From an uncultured Thermoprotei archaeon (GTDB lineage: Archaea > Thermoproteota > Thermoprotei > Thermofilales > B15-G2): a stretch of 64,000 nt of DNA. The stretch covers positions 2,361 through 66,360 of the forward strand of contig CBDUKN010000011.1 in the NCBI GenBank assembly GCA_965367815.1, written 5' to 3'. The position numbers were made by a program, and so were the translations under genes. Positions 4,120 to 10,690 of this stretch are shown here, piece by piece. The first letter of the stretch is position 1. Every line of letters begins with the position of its first letter. A model generated the notes under the pieces. It saw only the letters and a program-made list of their open reading frames with translations, made no database searches and was not told where the DNA came from.

Positions 4120-5079
4120 ATGTCTCTGAGAACTGTAGAGTACTTGGGTAGAGTCAAGCTTCTGGCGAGGGAAGGTTATTTCGACTCCCTTATTGCTGAG
4201 ATTCGTAGTCTAGACGATGCTGCTGTCGAGTATTTCTCTAAGCGGCTATCTAAGGTAGGTATCTCAGAGAAAAGAGGCTTCTTTAAGTCTATTTTACCTA
4301 CGTTCATTTTCTCTATAATAGACTCTCTTGCCCCTTACTTGAGGTTAACTACTTCACGTATAGTGAAAGAGTACTCATCACTAGTCGACGTTATGGGAGA
4401 TCCTGAAGAAGACTTCGTCAACTATACGTGTGCTGAGGAAATAGAGACTGCACTTGATACTCTCAGGTGGATGTCCCGGCTAAGTGACTTTAAGAAAATA
4501 GCCTTGTCAAAGGCTATTTCCGTTATCTCCGAGGTTCTTTATTCAAAGGGCTCCATGCTTTCTAATATTCAGTCATTAGCCGATGCTCTGAGTAAAAAGA
4601 TTCTAGACGATTTATCTACTATATACAATTACTTTGAAATAAAGAAAAAAACACTTATCATAGGACTTCTACTTAAAACTAAGTGCTCAGGAAACAGATC
4701 GCACATCGACGTACTGAGATTAAGTCTGCTGGCCCTGCCTGGAATAGATCAGCGTATAACAAACCTCTTCTTATATTACTTGACTAAAGTACTATTTAAA
4801 GACGAAGCTTCCCTAAGCTCGCTACACGTACCTATAGACCCACATGTAGCTAGACCTGCAATTAGGGTAGGTATAGTATCTAAGCTGCCGAGTAACCCTA
4901 GGTACGCTTCAAACAGATACAGGGAGTTTCAGACTATTGCAAAAGTTCTTTTCCCTGATGACCCCACAGCCCTTTATACACTGAAGCTTGTTGGACTAAA
5001 GTTCTGTAAACACAAGCCTGCTTGTGACCTATGCCCTCTATTTTTCAACTGTGATTACGCCTTAACATCACCCGAATAA
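4120..5079 (+). CDS. HhH-GPD (endonuclease III-like) superfamily protein with N-terminal extension and [4Fe-4S] motif
   Basis: HhH LLALPGIDQRITN, PIDPHVAR (conserved Asp), C-terminal CKHKPACDLCPLFFNC. Confidence 0.75.
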   Translation: MSLRTVEYLGRVKLLAREGYFDSLIAEIRSLDDAAVEYFSKRLSKVGISEKRGFFKSILPTFIFSIIDSLAPYLRLTTSRIVKEYSSLVDVMGDPEEDFVNYTCAEEIETALDTLRWMSRLSDFKKIALSKAISVISEVLYSKGSMLSNIQSLADALSKKILDDLSTIYNYFEIKKKTLIIGLLLKTKCSGNRSHIDVLRLSLLALPGIDQRITNLFLYYLTKVLFKDEASLSSLHVPIDPHVARPAIRVGIVSKLPSNPRYASNRYREFQTIAKVLFPDDPTALYTLKLVGLKFCKHKPACDLCPLFFNCDYALTSPE

Positions 5080-5154: not shown

Positions 5155-5916
5155 GTGAAGAATAAGCCTCTTAACGAGGTAACTAAAGGAGAACTAAAGT
5201 CTCTTGTTAGAAAATTCTCCAAAAAGGGGCTAAAGCTCTATGATACCTCTGGGAAAGTACTTGGCTTTATTGTGAAAATATCTGTAGACAAACACACTAA
5301 AAGAGCAAAATCAATTGTAGTAGTACTCGAGAGTGGTGCTAGAAAAACTTACTCTGCAGAAAAAATAGAGGTTAACCCGAAGAAAGGCTTTATCTTAGTA
5401 CCCAAGAAAACTCGACGCGAAAATAAACCTAAGCCTTCTCTAACGCCTGCTCCTCAAGAAAATATTTCTCAAGACATATCGTACACAGAAGCAGAGTTAT
5501 CAAAAATTATCACTGAAATAAAATCTCTAGAAGAAGAAATGAAGAGAATAATAGACGCCAAAGCCAAAATCTGCGTTAAGTACGCGAGAAACGAAATAAG
5601 CGAAACTTTTGCTCAGAAAATGCTAGCAGATCTCGATAGGAAAATGGCTCAGCTCACCGAGCAAGCGCTAAAACTTCTGCCTTACACTAAGGAGCTCTAT
5701 CAAGTACTTAGAGGGTACAGATTAAAGCTTGTAAGGGAATACGAGGAAGAATACATAAAAGTCATGCTGTGCGGAACTCGTGCAGACACACAAGTAAAAC
5801 TCAGCTATCTTAAAGAAAAACTAGACAGAATAGACTCCTTAATGACTAACCTTCAGTCGCTAGAGCTGCTTCTTAAGCGCGTACGCTCACTGAGTACTTC
5901 TCCGGTAACAATATAA
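5155..5916 (+). CDS. PRC-barrel + coiled-coil protein, CdvA-like
   Basis: N-terminal KLYDTSGKVLGFIVKI...EKIEV...ILVP PRC pattern, Pro-rich linker, long heptad helices with KYARNEISE. Confidence 0.55.
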   Translation: MKNKPLNEVTKGELKSLVRKFSKKGLKLYDTSGKVLGFIVKISVDKHTKRAKSIVVVLESGARKTYSAEKIEVNPKKGFILVPKKTRRENKPKPSLTPAPQENISQDISYTEAELSKIITEIKSLEEEMKRIIDAKAKICVKYARNEISETFAQKMLADLDRKMAQLTEQALKLLPYTKELYQVLRGYRLKLVREYEEEYIKVMLCGTRADTQVKLSYLKEKLDRIDSLMTNLQSLELLLKRVRSLSTSPVTI

Positions 5917-5940: not shown

Positions 5941-5995
5941 AGAGTGATGAGGGTCTTAAGTGATGATAGGTGATTAGAAACCCACGCTCTGACTT
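5941..5995 (+). ncRNA. C/D box guide sRNA
   Basis: C GTGATGA 5944-5950, guide GGGTCTTAAGTG, D' ATGA, C' GGTGATT, guide AGAAACCCACGCT, D CTGA 5989-5992. Confidence 0.8.
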
Positions 5996-6153
5996 TATTC
6001 TTCGCGCACATACTCTAATATAATGTGGAATGTGTTCTTACCGCACTTCTTACAGTAAAGGTAGAGCTGTTTAAAATCCCTTATATCATAGCCTACTCTA
6101 AGCTCTTTCTCTTCACCGCACTCTTGACATTTAATCCTCCAGTATCCAGTCAT
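5995..6153 (-). CDS. Small zinc-ribbon protein (52 aa) ending in Glu-Glu; not in ORF track
   Basis: Manual translation MTGYWRIKCQECGEEKELRVGYDIRDFKQLYLYCKKCGKNTFHIILEYVREE; SD GAGGTGA overlaps the stop of the upstream RimK-family gene. Confidence 0.85.
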   Translation of the reverse strand: MTGYWRIKCQECGEEKELRVGYDIRDFKQLYLYCKKCGKNTFHIILEYVREE

Positions 6154-6158
6154 TTCTA

Positions 6159-7040
6159 TCACCTCTTTACTTCTTCTTCAACATACTTGACGATAGCTAA
6201 AGGTACGTCGACTCCTGTAACTTTACAGAGTTCCTCGAAATCTGGACTCCCGTTAACTTCTACTATTACCGGCCCCTCTTTCGTCTCTACTATGTCTACG
6301 CCGGCGTAGCCTAGTTTAAGGCACTCAGCTGCCTTAACGGCTATTTCTCTATACTCGGGTGGCAGCGTACACTTTTCACCTCGTCCCCCTTGAGCTATAT
6401 TCGTCTTCCAAGAGCCTGGTGCAGCATACCTATACATTGATGCAACAACCTCTCCTCCAACTACAAACGCCCTTATATCTCTTCCCGGCTTCTCGAGGTA
6501 CTCTTGAACATAGAGCGGCTTTCTAAACTCTAGGAGAGTCTTCATGACTTCAAAAGCCACATCAGGGTCGCTTACTTTCACAGATCCGTAGCCCCTGGAG
6601 CCCATTATGGGCTTAACTACTACCTCTCCTAGTCCTTTTACAGCAGTAAGCGCTGACCCTAAGTTTTCTGAAATAAAAGTCCTTGGAACAGGTAGTCCCT
6701 CTTTCTCTAGTATAGCTAAAGTGAGGTACTTATTTCGAGTAATGAATAGAGCCTGCGTAGAATTAACTACCTTTATTCCATACAGCTCCATATGCATAAA
6801 GAAGCCTATTCTAGCTAAAAACTGCTCAACGCTTATTGAGAGACCAAAAGACCGTAAAAGTACAGCATTAGGTAAAAAAGACCTATTTCCTACAATAAAC
6901 CTCGGGCCCCCGCCTATCCATGCGCCTATTCTTCTGAGAGAAACATAAATTCCCCTATGTCCTCTTCGCTTTATTGCATCTAAAAGCCTCCTGCAAGCAT
7001 GAGGCGGGAGCGGAGCGTCGTGTACTACAGCAATATCCAT
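6159..7040 (-). CDS. RimK/LysX family ATP-grasp alpha-L-glutamate ligase
   Basis: RNKYLT, VVKPIMGSRGYG, YVQEYL, DIRAFVVGG, WKTNIAQGG, EVNGSP; probable start MDIAVV at 7040 (track starts at 7103). Confidence 0.92.
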   Translation of the reverse strand: MDIAVVHDAPLPPHACRRLLDAIKRRGHRGIYVSLRRIGAWIGGGPRFIVGNRSFLPNAVLLRSFGLSISVEQFLARIGFFMHMELYGIKVVNSTQALFITRNKYLTLAILEKEGLPVPRTFISENLGSALTAVKGLGEVVVKPIMGSRGYGSVKVSDPDVAFEVMKTLLEFRKPLYVQEYLEKPGRDIRAFVVGGEVVASMYRYAAPGSWKTNIAQGGRGEKCTLPPEYREIAVKAAECLKLGYAGVDIVETKEGPVIVEVNGSPDFEELCKVTGVDVPLAIVKYVEEEVKR

Positions 7041-7111
7041 AGTTCTCACTACACATAGTCGCCGCACTAGATAAACTTTATATAAGGACTCCAGCAAATT
7101 CACGTTCTAGT

Positions 7112-8806
7112 GTGACTACGTTCACTAAAACCATACAATATATATTTTCACTAGACCCTTACTACAAGTTGTTTGCCTTAAGCCACACAAAGCTTGTCGC
7201 AGAATCCTCGCTTAAATCGCTCATAAAGGACCTCGCATCGCTGCAGTTAGCTAGTGGAGCATTTCCTGCCGGCTGGAATGTACTTTACTCTGAAAGCCCT
7301 TTAGCATCTGCGAAAGCCCTTTTAGTAATGAGGACGCTGCCTGAAGCATCTAACAGAATAATTAAGTATTTAAAGGAGAGTATTTCGTCGTACGGATTCT
7401 GGAAAGAAAACCCTACTCAGCTTTCAGCTGTGGAAGACTTTATTAATCCCCGCGACTACACGACGTCAAGTCTATACTCAAGCCTCTTGGCAGCATATGC
7501 TCTTAAATTAGCTGGATGCAAGACCTATGAGAACTTCATTGAAGCTCTTAAAGCGGCCCAAACCTCTAATGGTTTGTGGTATTCTCAAGACCGGCCCTCG
7601 GTGCTGATATCTTCATTGGCAATAATACTCTTTAAGGACTCTCTTGGCGAATCTGCACTTCTTGCAGCTAAAGGTCTTAAGTCCCTCCTGCCTACACTCG
7701 ACCCATCTCCTCTTACAGCACTTGCCTACTTAGGACTAGGACTTTTAAACCCAGATTATGCTAGAAAAGGACTAGAAATACTGCGCGACAAACAGCTACC
7801 AAATGGTGGCTGGGGAGTGAAACAGAAAATTTCTAGCCCTGCTTTAACGTCGCTTATACTCTTTATATTATCAAAATACAGTGTTCTAAATACTTATAAA
7901 CATCTTACATCAAGTTTAAATAGTTATTATTCTAAACTACTTGAACTAAAGAAAATAATAATTAACAACTATCCTATTATCGAAAGCAAACTAAAAAATT
8001 TACTCATACATAACTATATACTTTTTCCAAAGAGCAAAAAAGAGACTTTAATGCGAATATTCGTTCTCTCCACCTTTTCTAATTTTAGAGGAGATGTAGA
8101 TATTTTCAATGTTTTTTCAAACTTAATGAAAAGACTCGATTTTAAACCCCTTATAGAGCACACTGACTCAGTTCTCTCTGAAGCTATTTTCGATGTGCTT
8201 TTCAGTTATGATATCTATAGATCGCTTGTTCTCAAGAATACAAAATCAATTATTTTATTTAAGAATTTTATTAAGGAATTTAAAGAATTTGAATGCATTC
8301 CATTAACTTCCTTTACATATAAGCTTGCAGAGTATATTCTCTTCAAGTGTTCTTCCCAAATCCAGGAAAAACTGAGTAACCTGGGAAGACTACTTTATAT
8401 GTATAATCGCAAAATTTTTAATCAATCGACTCTTCTCCTTTGTTTGGAAACTTTACCTGGCTTAAGTAGGTATTCTGCAGATTTCTTCCTGTTTCTGTCC
8501 TGCAATATAACTGGCATAATTAGGTCTCATTACTCATTTTTACCTGTAGACTGGAGCATCGTCAAACCTCTTATTATGTGCGGTGTTTTTTCATCAAAAC
8601 TTATTTCGGCTTATAAGGTTAAAGGAAGAGTCTACGACAGTGTAATCAATTTACTTTCATCTATACTTTATAATAATATTCATAAAGCCTATTACCTTTC
8701 TTATGTTTCTGAACAGTGGTGCTTTAAGAGAACATGTGTGAGTATCAAAGGCCCCTGCCCTCTAGCCTCAATTTGTGTTCAAAAATATAGAAGCTACAGT
8801 CCGTAG
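7112..8806 (+). CDS. Fusion of prenyltransferase/squalene-cyclase-like alpha-alpha repeats and an HhH-GPD glycosylase-like domain
   Basis: Repeats LQLASGAF, YGFW, AQTSNGLW, KQLPNGGWG; C-terminal LETLPGLSRYSADFF, LPVDWSI and a four-Cys cluster CFKRTC...CPLASIC. Confidence 0.65.
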   Translation: MTTFTKTIQYIFSLDPYYKLFALSHTKLVAESSLKSLIKDLASLQLASGAFPAGWNVLYSESPLASAKALLVMRTLPEASNRIIKYLKESISSYGFWKENPTQLSAVEDFINPRDYTTSSLYSSLLAAYALKLAGCKTYENFIEALKAAQTSNGLWYSQDRPSVLISSLAIILFKDSLGESALLAAKGLKSLLPTLDPSPLTALAYLGLGLLNPDYARKGLEILRDKQLPNGGWGVKQKISSPALTSLILFILSKYSVLNTYKHLTSSLNSYYSKLLELKKIIINNYPIIESKLKNLLIHNYILFPKSKKETLMRIFVLSTFSNFRGDVDIFNVFSNLMKRLDFKPLIEHTDSVLSEAIFDVLFSYDIYRSLVLKNTKSIILFKNFIKEFKEFECIPLTSFTYKLAEYILFKCSSQIQEKLSNLGRLLYMYNRKIFNQSTLLLCLETLPGLSRYSADFFLFLSCNITGIIRSHYSFLPVDWSIVKPLIMCGVFSSKLISAYKVKGRVYDSVINLLSSILYNNIHKAYYLSYVSEQWCFKRTCVSIKGPCPLASICVQKYRSYSP

Positions 8807-9855
8807 AGAGTCGCGTACATATGTACAGCAGAGTGAACTGCTATTATATGTGTCTCGACTCTCTCCTTAAAGTCTCTCTTTCTTTCGCTCGAGAAGAAAA
8901 GAGATATACCGTGCCTGTTGGCGTAGCCTACTAGCCTCTCGTCGAGCCTCGCTATTCCCGTCCCCGGTCCAAGTACTCGTTCTATTTCTAGGTCGTAGTC
9001 TACCTCACAGTTCTTTAGACCTTCAGGCGGCGTACACCCCATACCGTGGGCCTCTACTTGCTTGCGTACTGCATCTATTATATCTTTACACTCTTCTAAT
9101 GCCCCCTCAGGCACTATAACACAGAACCCCTGATGTTCTCCCTCATGTAGGTCAATAATAAGGCTAGGCTTTATACTATCAATGAAATCTCTTAAAGCTA
9201 TGTTTTCAGGTAAATCTATTTCCTTGCTTAAACAGTCATAATCTATGACCTTGCCATCCATTACATAAAACGCTCGTGAAACTATTTCAAGTTTTTCTGA
9301 TTTACGGCTAAGGGAGGGAACTAAAACTCTCATTCTATCCAATTTTTCTCGAAGATCTTCACTGGTATTTAATATGTTACTAAGGCTTTTCGCTATCATT
9401 ATGCTGGTGGTCTTCTCAAAGCCCGGCTTGTAGACTAAGCATATATTTCTAAAAATTCCTATTGTCAGCTCTTCTAGCTCTATTATTTCTCCGTAATTTT
9501 TACAAAGTGTATTTAAGTCGTTGTAATCGGCTATCTGTATTTTCTCCTCAAACATTTCGGAAAAGACGTGCTCAAGCGGACTATAGCCTACAGGGTCTCT
9601 ACAGAAAAGTACGTAGAGATTTGCTGAAACAGGTAGGGCCTCAGCAGCCTTTATAGCAGCTAGTACTCCGGCAGGCTCGTCTCCATGGACTCCAGCAGTG
9701 ATTAATATATTTGGTCGATCTTCTCCTGCCTCGATTACTCCGGCCAAAATATCGTGTCCGAGCCAGTCTTTAGACACTAAGACCTGCTTGTCAAATATAC
9801 TTTCACAAGATATTTTTGCCACTAATTCTTCGTATGTCATAGTCACGCTAAGCAA
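8794..9855 (-). CDS. M14 family zinc peptidase, succinylglutamate desuccinylase/aspartoacylase-like
   Basis: ITAGVHGDEPAG (HxxE) and IIDLHEG zinc ligands; C-terminal SSE as likely catalytic Glu. Confidence 0.8.
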   Translation of the reverse strand: MLSVTMTYEELVAKISCESIFDKQVLVSKDWLGHDILAGVIEAGEDRPNILITAGVHGDEPAGVLAAIKAAEALPVSANLYVLFCRDPVGYSPLEHVFSEMFEEKIQIADYNDLNTLCKNYGEIIELEELTIGIFRNICLVYKPGFEKTTSIMIAKSLSNILNTSEDLREKLDRMRVLVPSLSRKSEKLEIVSRAFYVMDGKVIDYDCLSKEIDLPENIALRDFIDSIKPSLIIDLHEGEHQGFCVIVPEGALEECKDIIDAVRKQVEAHGMGCTPPEGLKNCEVDYDLEIERVLGPGTGIARLDERLVGYANRHGISLFFSSERKRDFKERVETHIIAVHSAVHMYATLYGL

Positions 9856-9928: not shown

Positions 9929-10690
9929 GTGCCCGTTAGAAGAGTTAAATCGGGTATTCCAGGACTAGATGAAATACTGCACGGAGGATTTCCTGAAAGA
10001 AATGTAGTGCTGCTTTCAGGTGGACCTGGTACAGGTAAAAGTATCTTCGGCCAGCAGTTCTTGTATTATGGTTTAATGAGCGGCGAGCCCGGAATTTTAG
10101 TGGCGTTAGAGGAGCATCCTGTACAAATAAGAATTAACATGAGTCAATTTGGATGGGATGTTCGAAGATATGAAAACGAGGGCCTCTTCGCTATAGTTGA
10201 TGCTTTCACAGGAGGAATAGGTGAAGCAGCAAAAAGAGAACGCTATGTTGTGAGAGATCCTGACGATGTATCCCTTCTAACAGATGTTCTGAGACAGGCT
10301 GTAAAAGACTTAGGAGCAAAAAGAGTCGTAATAGACTCCGTTACAACACTCTACATTACTAAGCCCGCCGTAGCTAGAGGCGTTGTAATGCAATTAAAAC
10401 GTGTTCTCTCAGGCCTCGGATGTACATCAATACTAGTATCACAGGTCTCAGTTACTGAGAGAGGTTTCGGAGGCCCTGGAGTAGAGCACGCTGCAGACGG
10501 TATTATAAGACTAGATTTAGACGAGATAGAAGGAGAACTCAAGAGAAGCCTAATAGTGTGGAAAATGAGAGGCACAAGTCACAGTATGCGCCGCCACCCA
10601 TTCGAAATAACGGATAAAGGAATAATAGTTTACCCAGATAGAGTCCTTAAGTTCACTAGACGCGGTTTTCTAGAAGAAAAATTAACTTAA
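9929..10690 (+). CDS. KaiC-domain RecA-superfamily ATPase (PH0284-like)
   Basis: SGGPGTGKS Walker A, VALEEHP, RVVIDS Walker [20 protein letters not shown]. Confidence 0.92.

Follow-up and report, generated by a model that had tools for sequence, protein, structure and literature searches.

A two-domain protein of an uncultured Thermoprotei archaeon that joins an alpha/alpha toroid to a divergent endonuclease III-like domain

Among repair enzymes, the DNA glycosylases of the helix-hairpin-helix (HhH)-GPD superfamily have been studied particularly well; as a rule they consist of one subunit and have few accessory domains. A gene located in a 64,000 nucleotide stretch of DNA from an uncultured Thermoprotei archaeon (contig CBDUKN010000011.1; the whole stretch is called the window below) was predicted from its sequence to join repeats of the terpene cyclase and prenyltransferase kind to such a fold, a combination that the original prediction did not recognize. 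The gene, referred to here as long, raises the question whether the two parts really belong to one protein and, if so, what such a protein might do.

The long gene and its two-domain product

The gene is an uninterrupted open reading frame (ORF), which starts with GTG and codes for 564 amino acids. It has a smaller paralogue in the window, called short. The following parts were distinguished in long:

7112..8806, plus strand: the long gene, encoding a toroid plus endonuclease III (EndoIII)-like, putatively Fe-S-binding protein
7112..7879, plus strand: N-terminal (alpha/alpha)6 toroid, approximately residues 1-256
7889..8011, plus strand: long connecting helix joining both domains, residues 260-300, assigned by DSSP on the AlphaFold2 (AF2) model
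8036..8791, plus strand: C-terminal EndoIII-like HhH-GPD domain, approximately residues 309-560

An unfamiliar fusion can be an artefact, and a mis-assembled junction between two genes had been considered in the original prediction. The intact architecture was found in at least 14 species-level sequences from five families, in independent ENA, JGI, Logan and GTDB assemblies, without a break in any of them. The ratio of nonsynonymous to synonymous substitutions (dN/dS) was 0.28 in comparison with a relative of 97% identity and about 0.10 with a 70% relative, and the values were alike in both halves of the gene, which is thus under purifying selection. The AF2 model built on 26 aligned long and short sequences had a pLDDT of 91.5 and a pTM of 0.87, and the two domains are linked in it by a continuous, confidently modelled helix. 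(With only three close sequences the pLDDT was 38 and the model was uninformative; the 26-sequence alignment was used instead.) The independent assemblies, the selection acting on both halves and the continuous helix exclude mis-assembly for practical purposes, and make two genes joined by mis-assembly or by a sequencing frameshift an explanation of negligible probability.

Between families, the 14 long orthologues share 17-22% identity. Residues G95, W97, G232, P449, C549 and C555 are nevertheless invariant in all 14, and G154, P478 and K19 are kept in 13 of them; that motif residues persist at such low identity indicates that the motifs are conserved features and did not arise by chance. Profile searches and Foldseek comparisons, described in the next section, support each half of the predicted fusion. 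These results show that long is a real gene, kept under selection in an uncultured Thermoprotei archaeon, and codes for a two-domain protein, and we are highly confident that its architecture is that of a toroid followed by a divergent EndoIII-like domain. A literature search for this architecture yielded no description of it. Taking into account that both folds are known, what appears to be new is their combination, the paralogous partner and the linkage to a RimK-type ligase (see below).

To define how widely the architecture occurs, several collections were searched. A HMMER scan of 1.84 billion representative proteins returned only five clusters, all of 559-604 amino acids and all with end-to-end matches, and a word-based protein search retrieved two long relatives (97% and 70% identity) and three short relatives. 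Six-frame searches detected the full-length architecture in 5 of 41 species genomes from the order of the window and in 12 of 120 genomes from its class; more copies were present on ENA, JGI and Logan contigs, and a search anchored on the neighbouring KaiC gene added one divergent member (L056). The five families that carry long are labelled f1, f8, f11, f12 and f13, and the window's own genus is labelled g1. The long family is thus tiny and has a very narrow distribution. Its members are all annotated as hypothetical proteins without a Pfam domain. At their cut-offs neither half is recognized by the curated models of Pfam and NCBIfam, and single-sequence scans with Pfam, NCBIfam, PADLOC and PHROGs gave a sub-threshold SQHop_cyclase match for the N-terminal half and nothing for the C-terminal half, i.e. 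curated models overlook the family entirely. A role of long in a defence system was considered and rejected after these scans. The nearest named records, obtained in the KaiC-anchored search, were uncultured Thermoprotei and Thermofilaceae metagenome-assembled genomes from Guaymas-type hydrothermal sediments.

The toroid and the endonuclease III-like domain

The N-terminal half was claimed to carry several Q-x-x-x-G-x-W/F repeats and to lack the DxDD motif. A motif scan of the 564 residue protein bore out both statements and located every other motif that had been listed. Three exact repeats and a degenerate one were found:

7244-7264, plus strand: exact Q-x3-G-x-[W/F] repeat QLASGAF, residue 45 onward
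7394-7402, plus strand: degenerate repeat G95-F-W97
7559-7579, plus strand: exact repeat QTSNGLW, residue 150 onward
7793-7813, plus strand: exact repeat QLPNGGW, residue 228 onward

When the N-terminal half was shuffled, the mean number of Q-x3-G-x-[WF] motifs was 0.014, and the observed number of three was reached in 0 of 20,000 shuffles. Single-sequence matches to cyclase models were weak: PF13243 (SQHop_cyclase) matched long with E = 0.083 and 12.4 bits (cut-off 26.1), TIGR01787 with E = 0.005 and 15.5 bits (cut-off 322.7), and weak SQHop_cyclase Pfam matches were seen in three of seven long members. The family profile compared with PDB sequences found squalene-hopene cyclase chains (E = 2e-4) over the QW repeats. 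In Foldseek searches of the PDB the model matched class II terpene cyclases (squalene-hopene cyclase, MstE, drimenyl diphosphate synthase), AprG and the complement thioester-containing domain (TED, C3d), with E values between 2e-4 and 4e-2 and a target-normalised TM score of about 0.5. These observations show that the N-terminal half is one (alpha/alpha)6 toroid of the terpene cyclase, prenyltransferase and TED kind.

What long has in common with class II terpene cyclase barrels, the beta subunits of prenyltransferases and complement TED is the QW-type Q-x3-G-x-W repeats and the (alpha/alpha)6 barrel. In contrast to them, its toroid lacks a DxDD motif, a thioester motif and any metal or acid site that is conserved. 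The repeats and the barrel could be taken to mean that the domain works as a class II cyclase or as a prenyltransferase, in other words that long is a terpenoid enzyme, but several observations argue against it. Neither DxDD nor DDxxD is present. In the AF2 model the domain is a single barrel of about 256 residues instead of a two-barrel beta-gamma pair. Among the N-terminal halves of the 14 long orthologues no polar residue other than K19 is kept family-wide, the remaining conserved positions being structural Gly and Trp residues; a D-x-E-x-T motif is present in 10 of the 14 members but absent from the window's genus. The first QW repeat is missing in three members, and the Pfam score is far under the cut-off. 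We therefore consider a terpenoid enzyme very unlikely. Most likely the toroid serves as a non-catalytic pocket or platform, which would read a bulky group or dock a partner.

For the C-terminal half, a helix-hairpin-helix, a PVD aspartate, a cysteine cluster of non-standard spacing and a Tyr at the position of the HhH Lys had been described. All were found, the Tyr by alignment to EndoIII:

8453..8482, plus strand: helix-hairpin-helix LPGLSRYSAD, residues 448-457, aligning to the EndoIII HhH, with Tyr454 at the position of the Nth Lys
8543..8551, plus strand: P478-V-D480, aligning to EndoIII PVDTH, with D480 at the catalytic Asp
8720..8776, plus strand: four-Cys loop C537-x4-C542-x6-C549-x5-C555, residues 537-555, a putative [4Fe-4S] loop of non-canonical spacing, aligning to the EndoIII cluster loop

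No match to PF00730, PF10576 or the NCBIfam Nth models was obtained with the long protein at E <= 1, and the relationship to EndoIII emerged from more sensitive comparisons. The genome has canonical HhH-GPD (Nth-type) proteins of its own, two ORFs scoring above the PF00730 cut-off. Aligned to these EndoIII-like proteins with hhalign, the C-terminal half of long gave a probability of 91.5% and E = 8.4e-7 from the HhH through the Cys loop, and the long-family hidden Markov model (HMM) matched the genome's own EndoIII ORF in two segments, which jointly cover most of EndoIII. A profile made of long C-terminal halves and short paralogues retrieved from the PDB Deinococcus radiodurans EndoIII-3 (E = 1e-6 and 3e-6), and also ROS1, Nth and MutY (MutY/Mig-type, E = 8e-3). 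The Foldseek list of PDB matches for the uncropped model was dominated by the toroid and was uninformative on this domain; in BFVD, however, the model matched the EndoIII of Halogranum tailed virus 1 with a probability of 0.91 and a TM score of 0.52 over the target. The profile-profile, profile-PDB and fold evidence together show that the C-terminal half is a very divergent EndoIII-like HhH-GPD domain.

The degree of conservation differs between the motifs. The HhH Pro, P449, is invariant in all 26 long and short sequences, and the position of Tyr454 is occupied by F, G, T or other residues in the long orthologues. Eleven of the 14 orthologues have the putative catalytic Asp. C537 and C542 are found in 12 of the 14, the remaining members having Cys close by; one genus has a shifted Cys in the loop, and in the f11 long protein the spacing is x5, x10, x5. 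Between the first and the second Cys basic residues occur (FKRT, RGSSR), resembling the DNA-contacting loop of EndoIII.

The best known counterpart is thus EndoIII (Nth), with D. radiodurans EndoIII-3 (PDB 8a5g/4uob) as the best match. The two share the HhH hairpin, the Pro-x-Asp about 22 residues past it, the C-terminal four-Cys loop with its basic residues and an all-helical two-lobe fold. Long differs from EndoIII in having Tyr454 instead of the HhH Lys and C-x4-C-x6-C-x5-C instead of C-x6-C-x2-C-x5-C; its domain is approximately 60-80 residues larger and scores under every curated threshold, is fused to a toroid, is accompanied by an obligate-looking paralogue, and has an Asp that is not universal in the family. 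With its nucleophilic HhH Lys absent, long is not, judging from the alignment, a bifunctional enzyme of the Nth type. In the MutY/Mig group absence of this Lys marks a monofunctional glycosylase, and so long, if an enzyme, would be monofunctional as well. The likeness to MutY and Mig consists of the missing Lys and the four-Cys, putative Fe-S, loop; apart from the PDB matches at E = 8e-3, no specific sequence affinity to MutY was found. MutY also has a second domain, which reads the opposite base and provides a working analogy for the toroid, but this domain is C-terminal and NUDIX-like in MutY, whereas in long the extra domain is an N-terminal alpha/alpha toroid.

The short paralogue and possible functions of the pair

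What an EndoIII-like domain without the Nth Lys might do was considered together with the paralogue, which has the following features in the window:

4120..5079, plus strand: short, an EndoIII-like HhH-GPD protein of 319 amino acids
4735-4764, plus strand: HhH of short, LPGIDQ
4831-4839, plus strand: PID of short, with D240
5005-5052, plus strand: C-x5-C-x2-C-x5-C of short, a near-canonical spacing

The short family is homologous to the whole C-terminal half of long (hhalign probability 98.8%, E = 1.1e-16, 262 columns). It is nearer to EndoIII than long is, with an hhalign probability of 97% and E = 1.2e-10. In a phylogenetic tree the C-terminal domains of long formed one clade (85/87 support), which points to a single fusion after an old duplication. 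Long and short occurred in the same genomes (G000, G001, G014, G018 and G053-G058). In f11, in f12 and on the P0004 contig the two genes are direct neighbours, long preceding short, and their ORFs overlap by 4 nt in L101 and by 8 nt in L133. Such an overlapping arrangement is typical of co-translated subunits. The presence of two canonical Nth-type proteins in the genome means that long and short are additional to these.

In the vicinity of the pair a few further genes were noted. One ENA metagenome contig (L133 3365-6842) carries a CN_hydrolase of 275 amino acids, long (604 amino acids) and short (279 amino acids) in a tight arrangement, packed or overlapping, with no RimK gene nearby. A protein of 127-135 amino acids without a Pfam match is encoded on the same strand directly upstream of long in f12 and f13 (L119 7483-7866; L120 8423-8830, identical to L056 117-524). 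In f11 and f12 the pair is followed by genes for a 196 amino acid protein with a Ribosomal_L6 match (E = 2e-18; L117 10917-11507) and for a CxxCxxCC-domain protein.

In this genome the position of the nucleophilic Lys is occupied by Tyr454 in long and by Ile in short, and both proteins keep the Asp (D480 and D240). Any chemistry performed by the pair should therefore be monofunctional, without apurinic/apyrimidinic (AP)-lyase activity. The likeliest interpretation, to which we give roughly even chances, is that long would be the larger of two subunits in an Fe-S module that engages DNA in the manner of a monofunctional glycosylase. Long and short would act jointly, probably in a heterodimer to which each contributes one [4Fe-4S] HhH module, and would contact DNA with the HhH and with the basic loop of the cluster. 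Asp480 of long, Asp240 of short or both could provide the general base, and the reaction, if there is one, would be hydrolysis of the N-glycosidic bond with no cleavage at the resulting AP site. The toroid would serve as an additional domain for recognition or docking, following a logic analogous to that of the extra domain of MutY. If so, the family would broaden the HhH-GPD superfamily in architecture and perhaps in the range of substrates, and would offer a concrete candidate for a still unexplored biology of DNA damage or DNA modification at high temperature.

Several observations weigh against a glycosylase-type pair. Long and short are not adjacent in this genome, where short lies 2 kb upstream of long with the genes of RimK, a Zn-ribbon protein and a CdvA-like protein in between, nor are they adjacent in f8. 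Not all members have the Asp: 3 of the 14 long sequences lack it, namely those of both f13 species, which have no Asp where the alignment would place it, and that of the sister species G001, in which Ser replaces it and the short protein has Glu in place of its own Asp. Catalysis may thus not be what the family conserves. On long, every curated HhH-GPD model stays under its threshold, the Cys spacing is unlike C-x6-C-x2-C-x5-C, and one genus lacks the second Cys. Finally, the persistent adjacency to RimK hints at a role without evident connection to DNA. The paired Asp replacement in G001 (L006/L089 3175-4854; P0009) may be a correlated change.

Some of the same facts would be explained if long and short were a catalytically inert Fe-S pair that binds or scans DNA, with the toroid tethering a protein or a ligand. 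This takes up one suggestion of the original prediction, which had named the coupling of DNA to a scaffold besides the excision or installation of a bulky modified base. Across both families the only invariant features are structural (the HhH Pro, the GPD Pro, the Cys residues and some Leu residues), and the Asp is lost in 2 of the 12 short sequences as well, one short copy having Thr in its place, with the long and the short losses coinciding in G001. Moreover, the best PDB sequence match, D. radiodurans EndoIII-3, is reportedly without activity on standard substrates. On the other hand, the Asp has been kept in the majority of the long and in most of the short sequences at only about 20% identity, which argues for a selected role, and both Asp residues are present in this genome. 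An inert scaffold is thus possible, although we are inclined to doubt it.

Linkage to a RimK-type ligase

Whether the neighbouring genes point to another function was examined in the window and in the other lineages. The following features surround long:

6159..7040, minus strand: RimK-type ATP-grasp ligase, the divergent neighbour of long; the ORF can be extended to 7103, and its orthologues start at the Met of 7040
5995..6162, minus strand: Zn-ribbon protein of 55 amino acids, downstream of RimK and probably its partner
5155-5916, plus strand: coiled-coil, CdvA-like protein (weak CdvA match, E = 0.039), located between the short and Zn-ribbon genes and conserved in the genus only
8794..9855, minus strand: candidate M14/AstE-like peptidase of 353 amino acids (weak M14/AstE-AspA Pfam matches, E about 5e-3), overlapping the 3' end of the convergent long gene by 13 bp
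9929-10690, plus strand: KaiC/RadA-type ATPase, downstream of long
7068..7084: two TATA-like boxes TAGATAAAC/TTTATATA placed back to back, each at a distance of about 27 bp from a start codon (GTG of long at 7112, ATG of RimK at 7040)

The ligase was identified by a Pfam RimK match (2e-35) and by a TIGR00768 score above the cut-off. The gene order in the genus is short, CdvA-like, Zn-ribbon (minus strand), RimK (minus strand), long, M14-like (minus strand), KaiC-like and a methyltransferase; the M14-like gene was found in g1 loci only. A RimK gene stands divergently adjacent to long in 10 of 13 lineages, in f1, f8, f11 and f12 (one small gene intervenes in f12), and it does so while all other neighbours of long differ between these four families. 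The distance between the two genes is 72-134 bp across lineages, and the region in the window measures 71 bp. The 17-mer at 7068-7084 is invariant in four species of the genus with diverged flanks. The pair of TATA-like boxes fits leaderless divergent transcription from a promoter region that RimK and long would share, and the two genes may be co-regulated via this putative compact bidirectional promoter.

These data could mean that long and short are components of a RimK-centred ligation system and not DNA enzymes: they would bind or process a substrate or product of the ATP-grasp glutamate ligase, e.g. a glutamylated protein tail or a cofactor, for which the toroid would form the binding pocket. 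Consistent with this are the survival of the divergent adjacency, the compact intergenic region with TATA boxes conserved in the genus, the Zn-ribbon and M14-like genes flanking in this genus and, in another lineage, a CN_hydrolase (amidase superfamily) gene preceding the long-short pair. Other observations argue against it. RimK-type matches were present in 97 of the 120 class genomes and long in 12, so that the RimK orthologue, with or without the Zn-ribbon gene, is widespread in the absence of long and short. In related genomes without long, RimK and the Zn-ribbon gene directly abut KaiC, and no hidden divergent long was detected beside RimK in RimK-bearing genomes without a detected long (relaxed HMM searches were empty and RimK abuts KaiC). 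The link between long and RimK is missing in f13 and on the P0004 contig; on this contig the CN_hydrolase gene lies ahead of long and short. The wide occurrence of RimK without long indicates that long and short are accessory genes found preferentially beside RimK, and not the reverse. Nor are we aware of any HhH-GPD/Fe-S fold that acts on peptides. Altogether we regard a function confined to RimK-centred ligation as unlikely.

The glycosylase-type pair and the RimK linkage can also be combined. Long and short would then be an obligate heterodimer of EndoIII-derived Fe-S subunits, the toroid cavity would read a bulky or non-canonical group on DNA, and the module would be coupled to the RimK glutamate ligase both transcriptionally and functionally. 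To our knowledge no heterodimer of two EndoIII-derived Fe-S subunits has been described in the HhH-GPD superfamily, and we consider this extended scheme improbable as a whole. If true, it would amount to a new DNA-processing pathway of hyperthermophilic Thermoprotei, which links amino acid ligation to a base-excision-type reaction.

A literature search on DUF2400 and on RimK/LysW/Zn-ribbon combinations gave nothing relevant. A Zn-ribbon protein of 51-70 amino acids (CxxC...CxxC) follows the RimK orthologue in 11 loci, namely in the window and in L003, L006, L123, L124, L126 and L128-L132. Its C-terminal tails are acidic and not uniformly Glu-Glu (...EYVREE, ...EYVRS, ...LRELKA, ...QFPQSSS), and for this reason a strict interpretation of the protein as a Glu-Glu-tailed carrier needs care. 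The Zn-ribbon protein also gave a weak PADLOC match to PDC-M14A (E = 8e-5). The KaiC/RadA-type ATPase was 77-94% identical over the best 80 records, which were labelled Thermoprotei, Bathyarchaeia, Nitrososphaerota and Methanomethylicota, and its gene is usually followed by that of the same methyltransferase.

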